A DNA stretch of 32,000 nucleotides, taken from contig NZ_CP042905.2 in the NCBI RefSeq assembly GCF_008000775.2, positions 2,400,001 to 2,432,000 on the forward strand, given 5' to 3'. The DNA is from Promethearchaeum syntrophicum (GTDB taxonomy: Archaea > Asgardarchaeota > Lokiarchaeia > Sigyniarchaeales > Promethearchaeaceae). Below, in pieces: positions 250 to 29,702 of the stretch. How positions within the stretch are numbered: position 1 is the first letter of the stretch; every line of letters starts with the position of its first letter. Position numbers and translations under genes: made by a program. The notes beneath the pieces were generated by a model. That model had not been told where the DNA came from. It saw only the letters and a list, made by a program, of their open reading frames with translations, and searched no databases.

Positions 250-2040
250 TTAAGAAGATTGATCTCTTTTTCTTCTTTGCGAAACATAAAAGCGCGCTGC
301 TTTATTTATATCATCATCATTTAAGCTTTTCTTGTTTAATCTGATTCTTAGTTGCTCAACAAATTTTCGACATAAAGTAATCGAAAGAGATTCGCCTAAA
401 TTCCTGATTTCTTCCCCGAGTTTTTCCGCTTCAATTGAAATTGGAGTAATTTCCACTTTAGGTTGCAAAATGAAATCTCCTAACGGATTTTTCTCCACTT
501 TACTTGAAACTGGCTTAATTTTTCTGATTTCCGCTTTGGTTTGAGCGCGTACACCTTTACTAATTAAGGGAGACCGTTCTAGCGTAAGTTTTTTCTCTCT
601 TGTTTGACCAGATTTGTAATTTGATAAAGAACTTTCTAAAAATTTCTCTTTCATTTCAATCCGAGAAGAATCAGAGGTTCCATTCAATCTATCTATGTTA
701 ATTGGTGCGATTTTATGTGTTTTTATTTCAAAATCTTTAATTGGCGCCCCAGGAGGCATTTCTTTAATTGAATTATCTTTCTTGGTTATCAAATCACTAA
801 AAAATGGATTTTTTTGATCCAATTTAGAAAATGTGGGGTCATTTTTTCTTTTAATCGAATCAAGGTTAGAAACGGGCAATTTTTTAATCTTTGGGACCCC
901 AATTTTATCTCCAGGTAATTGATTTACCCCTCTAAAATCTTTAAATTGGACTTTTTCAGGAGCTTTAAACATATCCTTTTCCAATTTTTTCTTATCTAAT
1001 TGTAATTGCAATTTTTCTTCTAATTCTTTAATTTTATTTTGAAATACTTCTAAATATGCAAATTCTTGATAAATTTCACAAATTCCTATCAATTCTCTTA
1101 GAAGTTCTATCCCTTCTGTATATTTTTCTTCTGCTACAAAATTATTCGCTTCTATAAGTTTTTTTCTAAATTCTTGGGGAAGGGATTCCTTTAAACCAAG
1201 TATTTTGGTAAAAATCATTGATAAATTTCCTAAAACATTTTGATCAATAAGATTTATATCAAAAATTTCTACATCCTTTAAATAAACATGCCTTTCCTTT
1301 AAAGCAGAAGAAGATACGAAATTTTGATTATCAGCATGGGTTAGTATAATCGCCCAATTACTATATTTTCCTTCTCTTCGCTTTAAATTGATGAAAAATT
1401 TGATTTTTTCATCATTAAAATTTGAACCATCAATAATAAAAAATATTACATCAGATCCTCTCGTAAAATTATTCCAAAGAGGGGAAAAATCATCTCTTGC
1501 TATGAAATCCCAGAGATCAAAGAAAATATTGCCCATCTTAATCTTGTAATAAAAAGCAAAATCCATAATTTTATGACCATGAGATTTATCTTCTTGATTC
1601 AATATATTTACAATCGTAGATTTACCAGATCCTACTGGTCCAATCATGGTTATTTTAGGATGTAGGTAATAATGAGTTTCTTTTATGAAAATCGTGAATT
1701 CCTCTTTTTCTGGGGAAATTTCTTTAATTTTCTTTGGGTCTGGGAAATTTTTAAGAAATAATTTTGAAGCTCTCTCCACTTCTTTGGCAATTAATTTAGG
1801 TCTATCAGCCATATCTGTTACAAATAAAAAGAAAACGCCATTAGCGTAAACGAAATGCGTTTGGAAATCAAGTAAAGATTTGTTAAGAATTTTTCCTTCA
1901 ACTGGATTCGTAATATAGGATAGAAGTCTCTTTTTTAGTACTATTTCCAAAGCTTCCTTATCAAAAGCTTTAGCGAAGAAATATTGGAATACAATTTCAT
2001 TATCATAATATATAAAGACTTGTCTTAACATTTTTATCAT
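250..2040 (-). CDS. Longin-like N-terminal domain fused to an Arf-family-like small GTPase domain with degenerate G3/G4 motifs, then coiled-coil and a Lys/Pro-rich tail
   Basis: P-loop GPVGSGKST is present. 'FDLWDFIARDDFSPLWNNFTRGSDVIFFIIDGSN' lines up with the Arf interswitch/switch II signature (f.vWDvGGQ..iRplW....glIfVvDs.D). 'LTHAD' sits at the NKxD position. The first ~125 aa (VFIYYDNEIVFQYFF...GVFFLFVTDMADR...ASKLFLKNF) show a beta-beta-alpha-beta-beta-beta-alpha-alpha hydrophobic pattern as in longin/SRX/sigma-adaptin folds (inference). The ATG at 2040 overlaps the upstream gene's TGA by 1 nt; the track start at 2043 is a TTG. Confidence 0.75.
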   Translation of the reverse strand: MIKMLRQVFIYYDNEIVFQYFFAKAFDKEALEIVLKKRLLSYITNPVEGKILNKSLLDFQTHFVYANGVFFLFVTDMADRPKLIAKEVERASKLFLKNFPDPKKIKEISPEKEEFTIFIKETHYYLHPKITMIGPVGSGKSTIVNILNQEDKSHGHKIMDFAFYYKIKMGNIFFDLWDFIARDDFSPLWNNFTRGSDVIFFIIDGSNFNDEKIKFFINLKRREGKYSNWAIILTHADNQNFVSSSALKERHVYLKDVEIFDINLIDQNVLGNLSMIFTKILGLKESLPQEFRKKLIEANNFVAEEKYTEGIELLRELIGICEIYQEFAYLEVFQNKIKELEEKLQLQLDKKKLEKDMFKAPEKVQFKDFRGVNQLPGDKIGVPKIKKLPVSNLDSIKRKNDPTFSKLDQKNPFFSDLITKKDNSIKEMPPGAPIKDFEIKTHKIAPINIDRLNGTSDSSRIEMKEKFLESSLSNYKSGQTREKKLTLERSPLISKGVRAQTKAEIRKIKPVSSKVEKNPLGDFILQPKVEITPISIEAEKLGEEIRNLGESLSITLCRKFVEQLRIRLNKKSLNDDDINKAARFYVSQRRKRDQSS

Positions 2041-3458
2041 CAAATATGCGTTTTTTTTAACCTCGAAAGTGTTTGGCGTACGGCATCGATCCTTATGTCT
2101 TCAGCAGATATACTTTTAAGTAAATTTTCTGTTAAAGAGTATGCATCTTCAATTAAATGCATTTCTTCGAGTAGTTCGATAAGTTGTAATGAATGATCTG
2201 TGTTTAGTTGTTCAATTTCATTTTGTACTAACGCTTTTTCTAATATTTCCATTTCTTCATCAGTAACGACTATATCTTCATCAGTAAATTCTTCTTCTTC
2301 ATCAGGAATTTCTTCTTCTTCATCAGGAATTTCTCCTTCTTCATCAGAAACTTCTCTTTCTTCATCAGAAACTTCTCTTTCTTCATCAGAAACTTCTCTT
2401 TCTTCATCAGAAACTTCTCCCTCTTCTTCAGAACCTTCTTTTTTTAATACATGAATTATTTCTTTTTTAGGTTGCTCATAACCAAAAATATATTTCTGTA
2501 TTTCATCTCTAATTAAAAATTTTAAAGCTTCAGGTATATTTAATTCGTTTTTTGAAAAGGAACGAACTAATCCTTTAAATCCTTGTAAAATTGCATAGGG
2601 TTCTGTGTATTCAGAAATTCCTTGTAAAATTTCCTTTAAAAATATAACAGAATCATCATCATTTGCTCGAATAGATGAGTTAAATAATGTAATTAGACCT
2701 TGTTCTCGCAGAAATTTACTTTTGATGCTTGATACAATACTTTCTTGAGCAAATTTTATCAATTCGTTAAAATTTTGATTTGGAATTTTTTCAATTATAT
2801 CCGAAATAAATAATATTACTGTATTTTTTAATCTGTCATCATTTCTTGCTACTCCCGATGTATAATTGATTATTATATAGCGTATCCGTTCTATTCCTTC
2901 ATCGATTTTTGGAGGATCTTCAGTTAAAAGATAGAAAGTGCTTTCTAAAATCGATAATATTTTATCTTGGCTATCAATTTGGAATGGAATGTATTTAATC
3001 AATTCTGGTTGAGGTCCACCAGTAGGCTTTTTCATTTTTTTACTTCTTTTACTTTTTCCTGATTTTTTTGAAGGTTCTTTTGAGGTACTGCTTTTAGTTT
3101 TAACCAATGTTAATTCCTGAATTTGAAATTCTTGAATTGGTTGAAAAATAATTCTGGAATCTTGTTCCCAGCAAGCAAAGATTTGATTTTCAGTTAATTT
3201 TTCTCGGATTTTTTTTGGAACTGTTATACTACCACTTTTAGTAAGCTTAATTATCTCTACTGGTTGAGTTGGAAGATTTACTTTAGCAACTGGAATTTCA
3301 TTTTCTTCTTTTTTGACTTCCGATTCTGGTTTTTCTGCTGATGCTGGTTTATCCACTGTTTCTATTTTGTTTTTATTTGGTTTTTCACTTTGTATGGTCG
3401 ATGCATTTTCTTGATTTTTTTCTTTTTCTACAAAGTTATCAGCAATTTTTTCTCCCAT
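2040..3458 (-). CDS. SpoVT/AbrB-domain protein with a helical central domain and an acidic heptad-repeat region
   Basis: 472-aa ORF. 'IKLTKSGSITVPKKIREKLTENQIFACWEQDSRIIFQPI' matches the swapped-hairpin AbrB/MazE pattern (k.G.itiPk.iR..l....gd......i.l.P). It has K/E-rich disordered N-terminal and linker segments, a ~200-aa helical region, then (x-[S/P/T]-D-E-E-x-E) repeats. It is translationally coupled to the downstream GTPase gene. Confidence 0.7.
   Translation of the reverse strand: MGEKIADNFVEKEKNQENASTIQSEKPNKNKIETVDKPASAEKPESEVKKEENEIPVAKVNLPTQPVEIIKLTKSGSITVPKKIREKLTENQIFACWEQDSRIIFQPIQEFQIQELTLVKTKSSTSKEPSKKSGKSKRSKKMKKPTGGPQPELIKYIPFQIDSQDKILSILESTFYLLTEDPPKIDEGIERIRYIIINYTSGVARNDDRLKNTVILFISDIIEKIPNQNFNELIKFAQESIVSSIKSKFLREQGLITLFNSSIRANDDDSVIFLKEILQGISEYTEPYAILQGFKGLVRSFSKNELNIPEALKFLIRDEIQKYIFGYEQPKKEIIHVLKKEGSEEEGEVSDEEREVSDEEREVSDEEREVSDEEGEIPDEEEEIPDEEEEFTDEDIVVTDEEMEILEKALVQNEIEQLNTDHSLQLIELLEEMHLIEDAYSLTENLLKSISAEDIRIDAVRQTLSRLKKTHI
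2256..2436 (-). repeat. Intragenic tandem repeat, 21-bp unit, about 8.5 copies, encoding acidic heptapeptides (EEREVSD / EEEIPDE)
   Basis: 'ttcatcag' recurs at 2256, 2277, 2298, 2319, 2340, 2361, 2382 and 2403, an exact 21-nt period. The units at 2340, 2361 and 2382 are identical (ttcatcagaaacttctctttc). Confidence 0.9.
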
Positions 3459-3522
3459 ATTTCAAATATTTAAACTATTTCCCAAAAAGTTTTTTGTATT
3501 TAAACTATAACTATAATTAAAC
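3459..3522. promoter_or_regulatory. 64-bp divergent promoter region with two copies of a 12-nt TATA-like element
   Basis: 'tatttaaactat' occurs at 3467-3478 and 3497-3508, 30 bp apart. Each copy lies about 10-25 nt from one of the two divergent ATGs (3458 on the minus strand, 3523 on the plus strand), consistent with archaeal TATA boxes and short or absent leaders. Confidence 0.4.
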
Positions 3523-4512
3523 ATGGGCTTTAGTGAAGAGGATTTAGTAAATTATTTTTCTAAAGGAAAAAATTATGTCCCCAAAGAAGCCATGAAAAAG
3601 CTAAATCAATTGTTATTTAAAGAGTTAGGTGAATATTGTCAAGTCTGCGAAGAGGATCGAATGATTTGTGTATTATCTCCAATGTGTCCTAGGCGAATAT
3701 TACTTAAAGTTCGAATTCAATCAGGAGCTAATAAGGATGATCTTCCCAAATTTTGTTATTCCCAAGCAGTAAATAATTTGAAGAGATATATGAAAAAATT
3801 AACAACTCTCTATAAACCAGTTGATGAACTTGTTTATAATAAAGATTTCATAGATATTATGTTTCCCAAATTATATGATAAATTTGTATCATATTTTAAC
3901 ACCGATATTGATAGAATTCATCAATTAATTGAAAGCAGTAAAGTTCCTGCAGAAAAATTCGATATCAATAGTTTAGATAATCAAATATTTCGAAAGATTA
4001 TAAACCAAAATAAACTAATCCGAGAAGGAACGTTTATTTATCATATAACCGAGAATTTATTACTAATATGGTATGAAGAAGCGATATTTATAAGTGATTT
4101 TTCCGATGACTCACATCTCACCATATGTAATGCAAAATATGATGTCATTGTGAATTTGAAGATTATTCAAATTGTTTTTCAAATTTATTGTGCACAATAT
4201 GGAATCATTGGTCATTCAATTTTAAACAGCCCTAATCAAATTTCACTTGAAATGAAAGTCCCAAACTCAGAAATATCTCAAGATCTATTAGACAATAACT
4301 CTGTATTTTTTTCAGAAATAATTATATTCCTTCAAGAATTCTTTTCTGAGATTGAAATATCCCAAGATTCGGATAATTTCATGAGATTTTCTATAATATA
4401 CCAAAATGTTGAACATTTTTTAAAAAGGAATATGCTTAAACCTTTAACATATAAATCAATTGAATCCATGATAGAAAAGATTAATGGATTAAAAATCGAT
4501 AAAATAAAGTAA
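3523..4512 (+). CDS. Hypothetical protein with an N-terminal CxxC-x7-C-x5-C motif
   Basis: 329-aa ORF with no recognisable family. Contains 'CQVCEEDRMICVLSPMC'. It is divergent from the AbrB/GTPase operon and lies 37 nt upstream of the HEAT-repeat gene. Confidence 0.6.
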   Translation: MGFSEEDLVNYFSKGKNYVPKEAMKKLNQLLFKELGEYCQVCEEDRMICVLSPMCPRRILLKVRIQSGANKDDLPKFCYSQAVNNLKRYMKKLTTLYKPVDELVYNKDFIDIMFPKLYDKFVSYFNTDIDRIHQLIESSKVPAEKFDINSLDNQIFRKIINQNKLIREGTFIYHITENLLLIWYEEAIFISDFSDDSHLTICNAKYDVIVNLKIIQIVFQIYCAQYGIIGHSILNSPNQISLEMKVPNSEISQDLLDNNSVFFSEIIIFLQEFFSEIEISQDSDNFMRFSIIYQNVEHFLKRNMLKPLTYKSIESMIEKINGLKIDKIK

Positions 4513-4549
4513 TAATATATAAAAATAATACTGTAGGAGATAAATAATA

Positions 4550-5686
4550 ATGGGTCAAATAATGGAACAAATATTTGAATTTCTTGATAATCAAAAATAT
4601 AATGAGGCAATCCAATTAATTAAAGAGAACTTGGCTAAAAGAGATCCAGCATTCATCGAAGATCTGGTTCCGAGTTTGAATATTATAACAAGTAGTTCAA
4701 TCGAAGTTGCAGAATCTATTATGGCTCCCCTTTTAGGAATTTTAAACATTGATGATGATGTAATACGTTATTCAATTATACTTTCTATTAGAGATTTTGT
4801 AATAGAACATAAAGAGCTAATTTTCCCTTATGTTGAAGACTATTTAAAATATGGAACTCCAAAGAAAAGGGAAGGAATGTTATTACTTATCAAATACATT
4901 GCAGATACCGATCCAAAGGCATTAAAATCATTCTATAAATTACTCGCATACGAATTAAGTGATTCAATTGACTATATTCGTAAGAAAACCGTTGAAATTC
5001 TTCAAGCAATTGGTAAAGCGGATAGACACGAAATAGAAGCTTGCATTTTTGATTATTTAAAAGCGGAACAAGAAGAATCTGAAAAAAATATTGCTGATGA
5101 AGAATTATTGCTCGAAGCGGATAAAATTATGGCAAGTATTAAAGAATCCACCCAATTAAAACCTCAAGATAAGCTCGTAATTGATGTTGCAGATAAAATT
5201 CTTAAGAAAGGTGCAGATGGGGCTTCAAAACGTGCGGATAATGAGAAAATTACTCATGCTGCTGATACAGTCTTAAAAGATATCGTAGGTTTAAAAGCTT
5301 TGAATAAGGAAGAACTTGAAAAACGGCATTTAGAAGCTCAATCGAAAGCCATAAAAGAGAAATTATTGGAAGATAAGAAGAAGTTGGAGATTGAAAGGCT
5401 AGAATTAGAAGCTGAAAAGGAAAAAATCGATGAGGAACGTTTAAAACAAGAAAAATCTCATCTTGAAAAAGAGAAAACTTTGCTAGAGAAAAAAATGGAA
5501 TTATCTCAAGTCAAACAAGAACTTGAATTAAAAAAGATCGAAGAAGAAAAAATGAAAATAATTGAGGAAGAAGAAAGAAGAATTCAAGAAAAACTTAAAA
5601 AAAGTGAAGAATCAGAGGAATCAGAGGTATCAGAAGAAAATCATGAAGATACTGCGTCTAATAATAATCAAAACCATTTTGAATAA
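4550..5686 (+). CDS. HEAT/ARM-like alpha-solenoid N-terminal domain plus a long K/E-rich coiled coil and an acidic Ser/Glu tail
   Basis: 378-aa ORF. The first ~170 aa have repeated helix-turn-helix periodicity with HEAT-like segments (DDDVIRYSIILSIRDFV, KREGMLLLIKYIADTDP, YIRKKTVEILQAIGKAD). Residues ~250-350 are heptad-rich (LEIERLELEAEKEKIDEERLKQEK...). The tail reads SEESEESEVSEE. Confidence 0.6.
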   Translation: MGQIMEQIFEFLDNQKYNEAIQLIKENLAKRDPAFIEDLVPSLNIITSSSIEVAESIMAPLLGILNIDDDVIRYSIILSIRDFVIEHKELIFPYVEDYLKYGTPKKREGMLLLIKYIADTDPKALKSFYKLLAYELSDSIDYIRKKTVEILQAIGKADRHEIEACIFDYLKAEQEESEKNIADEELLLEADKIMASIKESTQLKPQDKLVIDVADKILKKGADGASKRADNEKITHAADTVLKDIVGLKALNKEELEKRHLEAQSKAIKEKLLEDKKKLEIERLELEAEKEKIDEERLKQEKSHLEKEKTLLEKKMELSQVKQELELKKIEEEKMKIIEEEERRIQEKLKKSEESEESEVSEENHEDTASNNNQNHFE

Positions 5687-5700
5687 AGGGGAAGAATAAA

Positions 5701-6999
5701 TTGAAAATTTCAAAAGGATGTATTTTAGCAGCAGGTAAAGGAACTAGATTATTACCCTTAACTGAAACGAAACCAAAACCACTCATTCCAATTGCAGGAA
5801 AACCATTACTTCAACATTCAATAGAAATGTTTCGGGAAAACAATATTACAAAAATCCTTTTAATAGTTGGTCATTACAAGGAAAAAATTGAAGAATTTTT
5901 TGGAAATGGCGCTGATTTTGGAGTCGAAATCTCGTATATAGAACAAAAGGAATTTTTGGGAACTGCTCATGCTACCAATCTTGCAAAAAATTTTGCTGAT
6001 CAAGATCCCTTCCTTCTTTTCTACGGAGATCAGTATATGGATTCACGCATTTTTGAAAAAATACTTGATGAGTTTTCTACAAATACATATGATGGGTTAA
6101 TTTCTGCTAAATATATGGAAGATCCGGAAAAATGGGGTATCTTAAAATCAAATAAAGAAGGATTTTTAGAAAACCTTATTGAAAAACCACCTGATAATCG
6201 ATATGGAAATCTAGCAAATGCAGGGGTATACATATTTAACCAAGATATCTTTGAGGGAATTGCTAACACAGAAAAATCTCTAAGAGGAGAATATGAATTA
6301 ACAGACTCGATTCAGTATTTAGTAGACAGAAATAAAAAAATAAAGATCGTAGATATTTCCAATTATTATTGGAATGGTGTTGGATATCCTTGGCAAATTC
6401 TTGAAACGAATCATCATATTATTTCAGAAATGAATACAGATTTAATTCATAGCAGTGTGGTAGAAGAAGGATCAGTGACTATCAAAGGAATTGTCGAGAT
6501 AGGAGAAAACACATTATTAAAAGCGGGAACTTATATCGAAGGTCCCTTGATTATCGGAAAAAACTGTGTTATAGGTCCAAATGCATATCTTCGTCCTTAT
6601 TCAACCATTGGTGATAATTGCAAAATCGGCAATTCTTCAGAGATTAAGGCATCTATAATAATGAATCATACAGCAGTGCCCCATCTTTCCTATGTTGGGG
6701 ATTCTATTATTGGAGAACATGTCAATTTAGGATGCGGTACAGTTACTGCAAATGTTCGCCTTGATAAGAAAAATATCTCCATGGAACTTAAAGGTAACTT
6801 AATTGAAACCCATAAAAGGAAATTAGGCGCATTTATTGGAGATTACGCAAGTATCGGAATAAATGTTAATATAATGCCAGGAAAATGCATAGGGTCTTAT
6901 TGTGAAATAGGCAGTAATACAATAATATCGAAAAACGTTCCCGCAAATTCATTGCTATTTACAAAACCAAAACAACAACAAATCCTAAGAAAAAAATAA
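5701..6999 (+). CDS. Bifunctional sugar-1-phosphate nucleotidyltransferase / hexapeptide-repeat acetyltransferase (archaeal GlmU-like)
   Basis: The N-terminus 'ILAAGKGTRLLPLTETKPKPLIPIAGKPLL' is the nucleotidyltransferase signature. The C-terminal ~170 aa are left-handed beta-helix hexapeptide repeats (IGKNCVIGPNAYL..IGDNCKIGNSSEI...IGEHVNLGCGT). TTG start preceded by GGGGA. Confidence 0.85.
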   Translation: MKISKGCILAAGKGTRLLPLTETKPKPLIPIAGKPLLQHSIEMFRENNITKILLIVGHYKEKIEEFFGNGADFGVEISYIEQKEFLGTAHATNLAKNFADQDPFLLFYGDQYMDSRIFEKILDEFSTNTYDGLISAKYMEDPEKWGILKSNKEGFLENLIEKPPDNRYGNLANAGVYIFNQDIFEGIANTEKSLRGEYELTDSIQYLVDRNKKIKIVDISNYYWNGVGYPWQILETNHHIISEMNTDLIHSSVVEEGSVTIKGIVEIGENTLLKAGTYIEGPLIIGKNCVIGPNAYLRPYSTIGDNCKIGNSSEIKASIIMNHTAVPHLSYVGDSIIGEHVNLGCGTVTANVRLDKKNISMELKGNLIETHKRKLGAFIGDYASIGINVNIMPGKCIGSYCEIGSNTIISKNVPANSLLFTKPKQQQILRKK

Positions 7000-12433: not shown

Positions 12434-13531
12434 CTAATCGGGTAAAATTGTCAAACATTGAGCTAAACAGCGATGAACGCATGCATTACAATTGATACAT
12501 TTTATAGGATCGACCAAATCCACTTTTTTATCTGATTCATTCATTAGGTAAACATTACGGGGGCAAACATCTATACATACACCACATCCAATACAGATTT
12601 CACGGTTTATGGAAATCCTGCCATATGGATTCAGTTTGTATTCTGCAATTATGAAATTCATGGTTTTTTTCCCTTTTTTCCAATTAGCATTTCCCAATTC
12701 ACTTTTATAAATAGGGGTGAGCCCGTGGAGGTCCTCGCTTAATATAAACATAAAAAGTAGCGATAAAACTAAATTCCATATTAAAACAAATAAATCCAAC
12801 CAAATGAAGAAATAAAATAATAAAATTAAACCAATAATAAATACTTCAAATATTATCATCTTTTTACGACCAGATTTCAACTTAAGATATGGAACACTAA
12901 ACAGCGCGCCGTAATTCATGAGAGCACATAAACAAATCATATCTAAATACACAAACCAATCTAGTCTATCTATAAAAATTGCACAAATACCGTAAATAAT
13001 CGTTAATATAATAGTTAGCATAGCAAAATACATGTTTCCCATTTCTAAACGCGCTTTAATTGGAAAAATCACTTCCCTTTGGGATTTAGTTTTTTGTAAA
13101 TTGTTTTTTAAATAATCTGGAATATCTTTTGCGTAAACTGGTCCAAATTTAACATCCCAACCTGTTTTTTTTTTGATTTCTATAGGATCCAATCCACATG
13201 CACTTAACTGTGGAAGTATCAACCTTCGATGCTTTACCTTATTTCCGATATCTGATGTTTTCAAAATTGAAAGTACTGAGCTTGTTAAAAAATCATCTCC
13301 ACAAGCACCACACCAGACATTAATTCCATTGGATGGTGCAATCAAAAGCCAACAATCAGTATTTTTCAATGCTTTCATGACTCGATGCACTGTAATATTA
13401 AAATTTGATGTTAAGAAAACCGGACTATTTTCATCTGGTTGGCCAATTTTTTCTAATTTTGGTTCGACTGGAAAACCCGTCCATCTAAACAAGAACCCAC
13501 CATATAATTTTAAGGTATTTAATAAATTCAT
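12434..13531 (-). CDS. Fused HgcA-like corrinoid protein / HgcB-like 2x[4Fe-4S] ferredoxin membrane protein
   Basis: 'SPVFLTSNFNITVHRVMKAL...CWLLIAPSNGINVWCGACGDDF...HRRLILPQLSACGL...WDVKFGPVYAKDIPDYL' is collinear with the HgcA corrinoid-binding domain, including the NVWC cap-helix Cys. This is followed by about 4 TM helices and a C-terminal 'CIGCGVCIDVCP' + 'CINCNACVHRC' ferredoxin module. The ATG overlaps the upstream TGA (ATGA at 13528-13531). Confidence 0.85.
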   Translation of the reverse strand: MNLLNTLKLYGGFLFRWTGFPVEPKLEKIGQPDENSPVFLTSNFNITVHRVMKALKNTDCWLLIAPSNGINVWCGACGDDFLTSSVLSILKTSDIGNKVKHRRLILPQLSACGLDPIEIKKKTGWDVKFGPVYAKDIPDYLKNNLQKTKSQREVIFPIKARLEMGNMYFAMLTIILTIIYGICAIFIDRLDWFVYLDMICLCALMNYGALFSVPYLKLKSGRKKMIIFEVFIIGLILLFYFFIWLDLFVLIWNLVLSLLFMFILSEDLHGLTPIYKSELGNANWKKGKKTMNFIIAEYKLNPYGRISINREICIGCGVCIDVCPRNVYLMNESDKKVDLVDPIKCINCNACVHRCLAQCLTILPD

Positions 13532-24305: not shown

Positions 24306-24327
24306 TCATGATTTTTCAAGTTAATCT
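24306..24327. repeat. IS terminal inverted repeat (left)
   Basis: Perfect 22-nt match to the reverse complement of 26055-26076. Confidence 0.9.
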
Positions 24328-25989
24328 TTTTTCATAAAATTGTGCTTGGACTTTACTAATTCCTAAAAATTTCAATGTTTTTTTTAACCAATTTTCACTT
24401 AAAACCTTCTTACGTCCATCATGCATAGATTTAAGCAACCGCCAATTTAGATTACTCGCTTCTTCCCAAATATCACTTTCTAATTCTTCATCTCTACAGA
24501 ATACAAAACGCAAATGGTAATCTCCTTCAGTAAGGATCAGCCTTCCCACTTGTTTCTTAGCACTACGACTGTAAAAATGCGATTTTTGGCGTCCAAAGGC
24601 TTGCTCTAAAGTATTATTTGTCAAAATCGGTTTTTCAAATTTACGATAACTGAATAGACCATTACGATAACTTTCCCACAATCTTAGCCACTCTCCCATT
24701 ATTTCCAAATATGTACTAGACGATCGCGGTAAATAGGCCCGCAAATTCGTTTTAACAAAATTTTGATCGGTTTCAAGTAGTTTTTGCTCCAAATTGACAA
24801 ATAATGTTGCCATGTTGTCCTCGATCTCTGATGAACTTACATTTTTTGCAAAGTATCCTGAATAAATTTCTTTGAAGATCTCAAAAAGTTCGTTACAATC
24901 AGAATAGAGAGAATATAATGAACTTAATGATTCTGTCCATTTTTCTCCCTCTCTACGATATATTTTGTGAATTCGATAGTTTTGAGGTACTTGACTCATG
25001 ATTTCAAACATTTGAGCTGTGTAATCGTCTAAATGTTCGAAAAATTTAATCCCCCTAAGTTGTTCAAATTTTTTGTTTCTGAAGCGTTTCATTTTTTTTA
25101 AATCAGCAATTATCGGAGAAAAAACCGTTTTTGGGGCAATTTTTCCATGTTCTTCAATATATATTGGGGAATTAGGACCTGTGTTCAAAAAATAGCTATT
25201 TTGTATTACTTGAGATAATCTTTTATGGAGTTTTCCATCAAGTAATTCCAAATGATTCCAAATATTATTCATAAAATGGTACCCACAGTATTGATGGGGT
25301 ATTTTGGGATAATATTTGGAGATGCAACTCGTTATATTGTTTTGTTTATCGCTAATAAATCCACTTATCTTCACAGAATAAAGAGAGATAATTTTTTCAA
25401 TCTCATCATGCAGAATATCTGCTGTTGCACTTTCTAGGTAAACCGTGGATAGTAATCGGTTCGAAATTAAATCAACAAAGAGCCACAATCCTGGACCCTC
25501 AACCAATGGATCCTCTCCATCTAAACCCATTAAAATGACTTTTTGTTTCTTTATAATTTCTAAAGTTTTTTGATCAATAGCTTCAGATTTGACTACAGTC
25601 ACCACATTAATCATTCTTCGGATTGTACTTTCAGAAATTTTCAATTTATATTCTGTTTGAAGCACATCTAAAATATATGCTGCCTTAAAATGTTTCTTCA
25701 AAGCGTAAAATGCTACCTTTTGTACAACATCTTTTCCATAATAGAAACCTTCAAATTCAAACCGAGATTGAGGATTAAATACAATATCGTGCATTTTACA
25801 ATTTGGATTAATGCAATGATAATAGATTGTGATTTGATTTATGTCTCCAGCAAGAGAATGCACGATTTTACCATTGTCTGCATATTTTTTGATTACTTTT
25901 TCCTGACAGACAGGACATTCTTTTGGTAAATTCTGGGGCCATTTTAGATAAACGGTACAATAATCCCCCGACTGAGCATGATATTTCAT
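24316..25989 (-). CDS. Transposase (probable DDE type) with an N-terminal Cys-rich zinc-finger region
   Basis: The N-terminus has 'CPVCQEK...HCINPNCKMH'. The central 'VILMGLDGEDP...LWLFVDL...ISGFISDKQNNITSCISKYYPKIPHQYCGYHFMNN' resembles the D...D...(C.H..N) layout of IS256/Mutator-like or ISLre2/ISKra4-like transposases. It is bounded by terminal IRs. Confidence 0.75.
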   Translation of the reverse strand: MKYHAQSGDYCTVYLKWPQNLPKECPVCQEKVIKKYADNGKIVHSLAGDINQITIYYHCINPNCKMHDIVFNPQSRFEFEGFYYGKDVVQKVAFYALKKHFKAAYILDVLQTEYKLKISESTIRRMINVVTVVKSEAIDQKTLEIIKKQKVILMGLDGEDPLVEGPGLWLFVDLISNRLLSTVYLESATADILHDEIEKIISLYSVKISGFISDKQNNITSCISKYYPKIPHQYCGYHFMNNIWNHLELLDGKLHKRLSQVIQNSYFLNTGPNSPIYIEEHGKIAPKTVFSPIIADLKKMKRFRNKKFEQLRGIKFFEHLDDYTAQMFEIMSQVPQNYRIHKIYRREGEKWTESLSSLYSLYSDCNELFEIFKEIYSGYFAKNVSSSEIEDNMATLFVNLEQKLLETDQNFVKTNLRAYLPRSSSTYLEIMGEWLRLWESYRNGLFSYRKFEKPILTNNTLEQAFGRQKSHFYSRSAKKQVGRLILTEGDYHLRFVFCRDEELESDIWEEASNLNWRLLKSMHDGRKKVLSENWLKKTLKFLGISKVQAQFYEKRLT

Positions 25990-28391: not shown

Positions 28392-29702
28392 TTATTCTTT
28401 GATGCAGATCTCCGAATTTATTTTTCTTTGATAATTTTCTTTTGATTTCTTCTTTTGTAAATAGGGAAACATTCCGAAACCTAATGCACATAAAGCAATT
28501 AATCCAGAACATAATCCAAAGAATGAATTTGGTGCAAAAGTTATTAATAATCCTCCGAATAATGGACCAAATAATTGACCTAAAGAATCTAAAGCTGATT
28601 TAAACCCTTGAATTTTCCCTTGTTCATATGATTCTACTGATTTTGAAATTTGTGATGATAAAACACTTCTAACGAGAGCCGCAGCTACCCCTTGAAAAAG
28701 TATAATACATATTAACTGCCATTTTTGATTAATAAGTGTTAAACTGAAATATATTACACAACTTATAATTAAACCTACTAAAGCAGATTTTTTTTCTCCT
28801 AATTTTCTTATTATTGGCATAAATAGAGTCATTCTGAACAAAATTTGAAATATCCCGGCTGTCATCAATAAAATTCCTAAAGATTCCGCTGATAGGTGAA
28901 AATTTTCATATGCATAAAGTGAAATGCTTGAATACACTAATGTCAAAGCTAAAGTGTAAAAAGCCCATTGAATTAATTTGAATTTTGGAAAATTATTTTT
29001 TTCTACTCTTGTATATGTTAATTTGTTTGAATTACTCTCATTGTTTAATTCTAGTGTAGGAATTTTAGATTCGCATTTCTTTAATGTTTCAGGTAAGAAG
29101 AAGATCGAACTAATTATTGATAAGCCAGATAAAATCATACCAAATAATCCTGGAAATAACATTCCTTGACCTAATGAAATTAATAATGCACTTATTCCTG
29201 GCCCCAATATATTTGAAAGTGCAAAAATTAAACTAATATTACCCATAAATTTAATTCGATCTTTTTTGTCAACAACGTCTCCGATTATTGCATTAGCAAT
29301 TAAAAAATTTCCTCCAAAAATTCCATCCAAAATTCTTGATAGTAATAAAATTTTATAGTTTTGACCTATGGCAAATATCAGAAAACTCAATAAAGTTCCC
29401 GTTTGACATATAATTAAAGTTGGCTTTCTTCCATATTTATCTGACAATTTTCCCCAAATAGGTCCAAAAATTATCCCAAACATAGCATTTGATGATAATA
29501 ATAATGTTGCTTGAAAACTTGTGGTGTTAAATGAGTTATTAACTTCAGGTAATAATGAAACCATGAAAGAAAAACCCAAAATATCTGCAAAAATTCCCAT
29601 CCAAATAGCATTCAATTGAGAATATTTTTTTTTTTTATTCGTTTTAATTTTTTTATCTTGCATTTTTTTCACGACATTTTTCTTTTTCTTAATATCTATC
29701 AT
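28392..29702 (-). CDS. MFS transporter
   Basis: About 12 TM segments. Motif A 'GKLSDKYGRKP' lies between TM2 and TM3. There is a central hydrophilic loop. Confidence 0.85.
   Translation of the reverse strand: MIDIKKKKNVVKKMQDKKIKTNKKKKYSQLNAIWMGIFADILGFSFMVSLLPEVNNSFNTTSFQATLLLSSNAMFGIIFGPIWGKLSDKYGRKPTLIICQTGTLLSFLIFAIGQNYKILLLSRILDGIFGGNFLIANAIIGDVVDKKDRIKFMGNISLIFALSNILGPGISALLISLGQGMLFPGLFGMILSGLSIISSIFFLPETLKKCESKIPTLELNNESNSNKLTYTRVEKNNFPKFKLIQWAFYTLALTLVYSSISLYAYENFHLSAESLGILLMTAGIFQILFRMTLFMPIIRKLGEKKSALVGLIISCVIYFSLTLINQKWQLICIILFQGVAAALVRSVLSSQISKSVESYEQGKIQGFKSALDSLGQLFGPLFGGLLITFAPNSFFGLCSGLIALCALGFGMFPYLQKKKSKENYQRKINSEICIKE

Follow-up and report, generated by a model that had tools for sequence, protein, structure and literature searches.

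A longin-domain Arf-like GTPase encoded in a conserved four-gene module of a Lokiarchaeial order

The window analysed here, 32,000 nucleotides of Promethearchaeum syntrophicum (contig NZ_CP042905.2, positions 2,400,001 to 2,432,000; GC content ~0.29), belongs to a genome of 4.32 Mb in a single contig. At window positions 250–5686, the listing of open reading frames (ORFs) contains four genes in two divergent pairs. Their products are a longin-domain Arf-like GTPase (P0001), a protein with an AbrB-like segment and acidic repeats (P0002), a cysteine-cluster protein (P0003) and a HEAT-repeat protein with a coiled coil (P0004). We found all four genes kept together in ~20 genomes from two families of one Lokiarchaeial order. 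Our tentative reading, to which we give a probability of about 0.35, is that the four proteins form a scaffold, with domain types like those of adaptor protein (AP) and COPI coats, around an Arf-like GTPase that is atypical and may not hydrolyse GTP.

The synteny was established by protein searches of 41 related genomes and from 20 re-extracted loci. In most genomes the four genes lie within ~5 kb and their order is conserved. The window's own family (genome G008 and genome G012, Lokiarchaeum ossiferum) has the same gene order as the window, and family f3 has the arrangement P0002(+)–P0004(−)–P0003(−)–GTPase(+), in which P0002 and P0001 are not adjacent. Genomes G007 and G013 depart from this, with a GTPase+P0002 pair and a P0003+P0004 pair up to ~88 kb apart; P0003→P0004 is the only pair that is invariantly co-directional. 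The joint occurrence of the four genes in a conserved layout in so many genomes excludes adjacency by chance. A preliminary description of this DNA had set co-occurrence across relatives among its tests beforehand and had named two contrary outcomes, namely genes never co-localised elsewhere and proteins lacking the longin and solenoid folds. Neither outcome was observed: the genes are co-localised in relatives, and both folds were recovered (see below). Such close synteny in more than one family usually goes with a functional link. The module is an order-level assembly, because outside the order the P0003 family does not adjoin the other three genes. In L. ossiferum the orthologs are NEF87_000113–116, named in UniRef and NCBI 'Rab family GTPase', 'SpoVT-AbrB domain-containing', 'Uncharacterized' and 'HEAT repeat domain-containing'.

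The proteins most similar to P0001 come from Lokiarchaeial genomes, with up to 87% identity in metagenome-assembled genomes and 42% in L. ossiferum. We modelled the protein with AlphaFold2 from a multiple sequence alignment (MSA) of 31 sequences (pLDDT 73.7). Residues 6–126 of the model have the topology β1-β2-α1-β3-β4-β5-α2-α3, a profilin-like five-stranded sheet without an N-terminal helix, which agrees with the longin definition used for comparison (PMC10933270, Fig. 7). A hidden Markov model of the N-terminal family alignment (22 sequences) matched AP-2 σ in the PDB with an E-value of 0.018 and synaptobrevin-like and VAMP7 longins with 0.035–0.12, and a Pfam hmmscan of family members gave Longin (E 2.1e-4) and Clat_adaptor_s (E 2.8e-4). 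Each of these profile matches is weak individually. We based the longin assignment, which had been proposed earlier and is borne out here, on topology and profiles together rather than on a direct structural match, because whole-model Foldseek and VIA searches were dominated by the G domain. A longin/GTPase-like paralog with 31% identity, in a 582-aa frame, lies in the same genome outside the window (G000:C1:2848808-2849761).

The Arf-type nature of the G domain was likewise recovered. Pfam assigned it to Arf (E 1e-8), the top Foldseek matches were Arl1, Arf6 and Arl10, and VIA matched Sar1 (Z 15.8), Arf6 (Z 15.7), Arl13B (Z 15.1) and SRβ (2fh5_B; Z 14.5). We compiled the nucleotide-binding motifs of 31 family members. 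The P-loop GPxxxGK[ST] is intact. The switch-I Thr is absent in 31/31 members, and G3 reads D-x-W-D-F, with the DxxG glycine and the catalytic Gln also absent in 31/31. In the window's clade THxD/SHSK stands in place of the G4 motif NKxD; the f3 clade retains the motif as NKRD. The preliminary description had considered a GTPase-controlled switch. Judging from these motifs, a canonical switch is doubtful, because the switch-I Thr and DxxGQ are lost family-wide and NKxD is lost in the window's clade. The tail following the G domain had been described as coiled-coil and Lys-Pro-rich; it is a variable, disordered P/K-rich linker that leads to a conserved three-helix motif at residues 534–596.

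For P0004, a HEAT-like solenoid with a K/E-rich coiled coil had been predicted. Comparison with the ESM Atlas and the alignment of orthologs confirmed both parts: Atlas features scored 0.93 against HEAT/PDS5 clusters, and the structure matched HEAT clusters, one adaptin-N cluster included, with TM scores of 0.56–0.67. The closest resemblance was to adaptin-N and PDS5 clusters, and the UniRef name of the L. ossiferum ortholog also refers to HEAT repeats. The Pfam Adaptin_N signature is absent, and no Pfam family was matched at E≤1 except a spurious ribosomal L16. Longin, Arf-like and solenoid folds are thus encoded side by side, as had been noticed at the outset. An AlphaFold/ESMFold complex prediction for P0001 residues 1–360 (31-row MSA) and P0004 residues 1–240 (20-row MSA) scored 0.00 against a mark of 0.32, and we count this result neither for nor against an interaction.

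The motif IIKKTKTGITFPKELRE...EKDKIIL of P0002 is conserved across 19 orthologs and resembles the AbrB/MazE swapped-hairpin domain (AbrB-N). Pfam MazE_antitoxin was matched weakly (E 0.11) in one family member. The Atlas model of residues ~65–117, as a single chain, reached TM scores of 0.45–0.49 over ~50 residues against MazE/AbrB clusters, and UniRef names the L. ossiferum ortholog as SpoVT-AbrB domain-containing. The family profile matched nothing in the PDB except a spurious ETS domain (E 0.58). Taken together, these data weakly suggest the AbrB domain assigned earlier to P0002, the structural agreement being partial. Beyond this segment lie a conserved helical region and a C-terminal helix. 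The acidic heptad repeats, also described before, were confirmed by Tandem Repeats Finder (TRF) as a 21-nt unit repeated 9.1 times in tandem (score 237). They are a lineage-specific insertion and are absent from the orthologs. An 84-aa Ser-rich ORF at 2200–2454 (+) was rejected as a gene, being the antisense of this repeat.

P0003 was modelled by AlphaFold2 with a pLDDT of 80.6 and a pTM of 0.80. Its cysteine motif had been given as CxxC-x7-C-x5-C; the CxxC and the x5 spacing are correct, the x7 is x6, and an invariant C78 has to be added. The P0003 family was found in 141/201 genomes of the phylum, with matches covering residues 25–125. The cysteine region with its CxxC-xx-DR motif forms the conserved core phylum-wide, and the motif is also present in distant loci. 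No match to the fold rose above noise in the PDB (Foldseek; VIA-wide maximum Z 6.3) or in the ESM Atlas. We rejected an assignment of P0003 as a DENN domain, since DENN structures are contained in the PDB, yet no DENN-like fold was matched.

The gene layout agrees in all four ORFs with the earlier description (Table 1), as does the arrangement of two back-to-back units, whose shared region is exactly 64 bp long. P0002 and P0001 are translationally coupled via the TGATG noted earlier, which reads from 2042 to 2038. The conserved start of P0001 is the ATG at 2040 (M2) or 2031 (M5) and not the TTG. One RNA-seq run contains every sampled word of the 5.6-kb region and is uninformative on strand or co-transcription. 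Matches to sigma-70 promoters were discarded: they occurred at chance level (37 found, 36.3 expected in shuffles), and such a scan is inapplicable to archaea.

Table 1. Features of the four-gene module, in window positions
Feature	Position	Strand	Basis or description
P0001 gene, longin-domain Arf-like GTPase	250-2043	-	597 aa counted from TTG
P0001 C-terminal three-helix motif, residues 534-597	253-444	-	conserved LGxEIRxLGESLS...LC...AAxLYVxQRRK; pLDDT ~90
P0001 disordered P/K-rich linker, residues 359-533	445-969	-	pLDDT <50; length and sequence vary among orthologs
P0001 conserved helical segment, residues 290-358	970-1176	-	AlphaFold2 and ortholog conservation
P0001 Arf/Sar-like G domain, residues 127-285	1189-1665	-	Pfam, Foldseek, VIA, motif table
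P0001 longin domain, residues 1-126	1666-2043	-	AlphaFold2 topology and profile matches
TGATG overlap, P0002 stop (TGA) / P0001 start (ATG)	2038-2042	-	sequence
P0002 gene, 472 aa	2040-3458	-	N-terminus disordered, AbrB/MazE-like segment, helical domain, acidic repeats, conserved C-terminal helix
P0002 acidic heptad repeat EVSDEERE x ~9	2252-2443	-	TRF
P0002 AbrB/SpoVT/MazE-like segment, residues ~65-117	3108-3266	-	conserved IIKKTKTGITFPKELRE...EKDKIIL
Divergent intergenic region, 64 bp	3459-3522	.	two TTTAAA archaeal TATA-like boxes
P0003 gene, 329 aa	3523-4512	+	N-terminal helical domain with Cys cluster, C-terminal α/β domain
P0003 Cys cluster	3637-3756	+	C39-x2-C42-x6-C49-x5-C55 and C78, invariant alignment columns
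P0004 gene, 378 aa	4550-5686	+	HEAT solenoid, then coiled coil
P0004 HEAT-repeat solenoid, residues 1-220	4550-5209	+	Atlas feature and structure comparison
P0004 K/E-rich coiled coil	5210-5683	+	ortholog alignment

The next gene after P0004 encodes a bifunctional archaeal GlmU (5701–6999, +; TIGR03992, E 8e-140). This neighbour is kept in L. ossiferum (locus L001, 3214–4539, −), so that conservation extends past the module itself. Farther along the window we found an HgcAB-like fusion (12434–13531, −; NCBIfam NF043039, E 2.8e-111, above cutoff), that is, corrinoid mercury-methylation HgcA joined to HgcB ferredoxin in an Asgard genome. PepQ is also among the neighbouring genes. A major facilitator superfamily (MFS) transporter (28392–29702, −) matched Tet(A/B/C)-family efflux models with an E-value of 2e-45, far under the equivalog cutoff, and is probably a generic MFS efflux pump rather than a tetracycline resistance gene. 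A 557-aa ORF (24316–25989, −), which weakly resembles IS256 transposases (E 4e-5, under cutoff), is possibly a degraded mobile element.

We infer that the four products could assemble into one multi-protein scaffold with P0001 at its centre. P0001 would bind a partner through its σ-adaptin-like longin domain, and P0004 is the most plausible one, so that this domain and the HEAT solenoid would be the main docking elements; we propose this docking by analogy with σ-adaptin on large-adaptin trunks and with SRX on SRβ. P0002 and P0003 would be further subunits. The G domain is predicted to bind nucleotide through its P-loop. As the switch-I Thr and DxxGQ are lost, it would more likely stay bound to nucleotide and play a structural part or switch slowly, constitutively or in dependence on a GTPase-activating protein (GAP), than work as a classic hydrolytic switch. 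Plausibly, the module acts at the membrane or at the cell-surface cytoskeleton. We counted in favour of this scaffold the synteny including L. ossiferum, the co-direction of P0003 and P0004, the coupling of P0002 and P0001, the fold matches, the enrichment of eukaryotic-signature-protein families in L. ossiferum and the decay of the G3 and switch-I motifs throughout the family. The layout (longin, Arf-like GTPase, HEAT solenoid and coiled coils) resembles the cores of AP/COPI coats and the SRX–SRβ pair. That P0001 might dock on P0004 in the manner of σ on an AP trunk, with a hydrolysis-deficient, membrane-targeting Arf-like domain and P0003 as a new-fold subunit, making the whole a proto-coat heterocomplex and prokaryotic precursor of the Arf-adaptor coat, is a narrower proposal that we consider improbable.

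Several findings weigh against the proposed scaffold. The HEAT region of P0004 spans only ~220 aa, far under the length of an adaptin trunk, and the Pfam and Atlas comparisons revealed no μ-homology domain among the module's products. In the model of P0001 the longin domain occupies the N-terminus, and no N-terminal amphipathic helix, myristoylated N-terminus or transmembrane segment was found. The motif losses of the G domain may mean that it does not switch at all, and P0003, as modelled, appears to be without a known fold. The AbrB-like segment of P0002 resembles a fold that binds DNA in other proteins. Outside the order, the P0003 family adjoins not the module but a protein of ~1300 aa that has a TrmB-like helix-turn-helix (HTH) at its N-terminus and long, amphipathic coiled-coil repeats resembling apolipoprotein (loci L022, L023 and L028, from other Asgard families). 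A ~343-aa coiled-coil protein is also encoded beside the P0003-family gene in these three loci. The two proteins may represent a different, older partner set of the P0003 family, and the TrmB-HTH neighbourhood could point to a DNA-related role.

Such a role would be at home in a nucleotide-sensing transcriptional module, in which P0002 would bind DNA, possibly its own divergent promoter, the coupled P0001 would modulate it and P0003 and P0004 would be accessory. The conservation of the AbrB/MazE-like segment in 19 orthologs, with its weak Pfam and structural support and its UniRef naming, is consistent with this explanation, as are the translational coupling and the TrmB-HTH neighbour. However, the segment makes up ~50 aa of a mostly helical protein of ~340–470 aa, P0002 is not beside P0001 in family f3, and HEAT, longin and Arf-like domains belong to protein scaffolds and membrane traffic rather than to transcription factors; we regard a transcriptional role of the module as unlikely. 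The split in G007 and G013, with at most ~88 kb between the pairs, and the restriction of invariant co-direction to P0003→P0004 would instead suit genes that are co-regulated without forming one complex, P0001 being a longin-gated small GTPase of a separate pathway and P0003 and P0004 an independent pair. This is rather unlikely, given that most genomes hold all four genes within ~5 kb in conserved order and that GlmU is kept next to them in L. ossiferum. Finally, the long coiled coils of P0004, the disordered linkers of P0001 and P0002 and the elaborate protrusions of L. ossiferum (PMC9834061) might suggest that coiled-coil and HEAT scaffolds organise the surface or the actin-based protrusions observed on Lokiarchaeum cells, and that the longin-GTPase is their assembly factor. 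No actin-binding or cytoskeletal motif was found in the module; this idea is purely speculative, and we consider it very unlikely.

In eukaryotes, longin, Arf-like GTPase and HEAT domain types serve vesicle-coat and membrane-traffic machinery. The components of the module belong to known Asgard classes of eukaryotic signature proteins, and L. ossiferum is reported to have an enrichment of such families, namely adaptin-N HEAT, Arf-like, Gtr/Rag and longin (PMC9834061). In the literature searched, we came upon no description of the conserved four-gene set with its family-wide loss of the G3 and switch-I catalytic residues and its novel-fold cysteine protein. An operon-like module that combines a longin-Arf fusion with a HEAT/coiled-coil protein would be a testable candidate for a pre-eukaryotic Arf-adaptor assembly, and the orthologs in the cultured L. 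ossiferum make co-purification, localisation and structural work feasible. The loss of catalytic residues throughout the family would mean that the Arf-like domain was put to switch-less or GAP-dependent use early on.

The preliminary description had not recognised the arrangement as a characterised one. This still applies to the four-gene module, of which we found no published description in the literature searched. The longin-GTPase fusion itself is not new, because Asgard fusions of Rag-family and Arf-family GTPases with an N-terminal longin domain have already been reported by Liu et al. (bioRxiv 10.1101/2020.10.19.343400), Tran et al. (Commun Biol 2024, PMC10933270) and Vargová et al. (Nat Commun 2025, PMC11914678). 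P0001 is like these proteins in that the longin domain is N-terminal to a small GTPase domain of the Arf-like structural class. It differs from them by a G domain that lacks the switch-I Thr and DxxGQ family-wide, by its long disordered linker and conserved C-terminal three-helix motif, and by its place in a conserved module with HEAT/coiled-coil, AbrB-like and novel cysteine proteins.

In the receptor of the signal recognition particle (SRP), the SRX (longin) domain of SRα is bound to the Arf-like GTPase SRβ. P0001 shares this pairing of longin and Arf-like GTPase, and SRβ is among the structural matches of its G domain. However, SRX and SRβ are on separate chains and SRβ is anchored by a transmembrane segment, whereas P0001 is a fusion without such a segment and without SRP-type partners. 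The cores of AP and COPI coats consist of σ/μ longin subunits and HEAT-solenoid large adaptins and are recruited by Arf1. The module has a longin domain whose profile is closest to AP σ, an adaptin-N-like HEAT solenoid and an Arf-like GTPase. In contrast to its short HEAT region and its lack of a μ-homology domain, the coat trunks are ~600 aa long and the coats include a μ-homology domain. Their longin is a separate subunit and that of the module is fused to the GTPase.

A conserved Asgard operon of DENN, LAMTOR1-like and Rab-like genes has been described (Liu et al., bioRxiv 10.1101/2020.10.19.343400). The present module is similar as a conserved Asgard neighbourhood that joins a small GTPase with regulator-type domains, but the parts of that operon (roadblock LAMTOR1-like and DENN) are different genes. 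The module also resembles bacterial MglA–MglB, a prokaryotic small GTPase paired with a partner of profilin/roadblock-like fold. There, however, the partner is a roadblock protein and not a longin, the two are separate proteins, and the catalytic machinery, with MglB as the GAP, is intact, unlike that of P0001.

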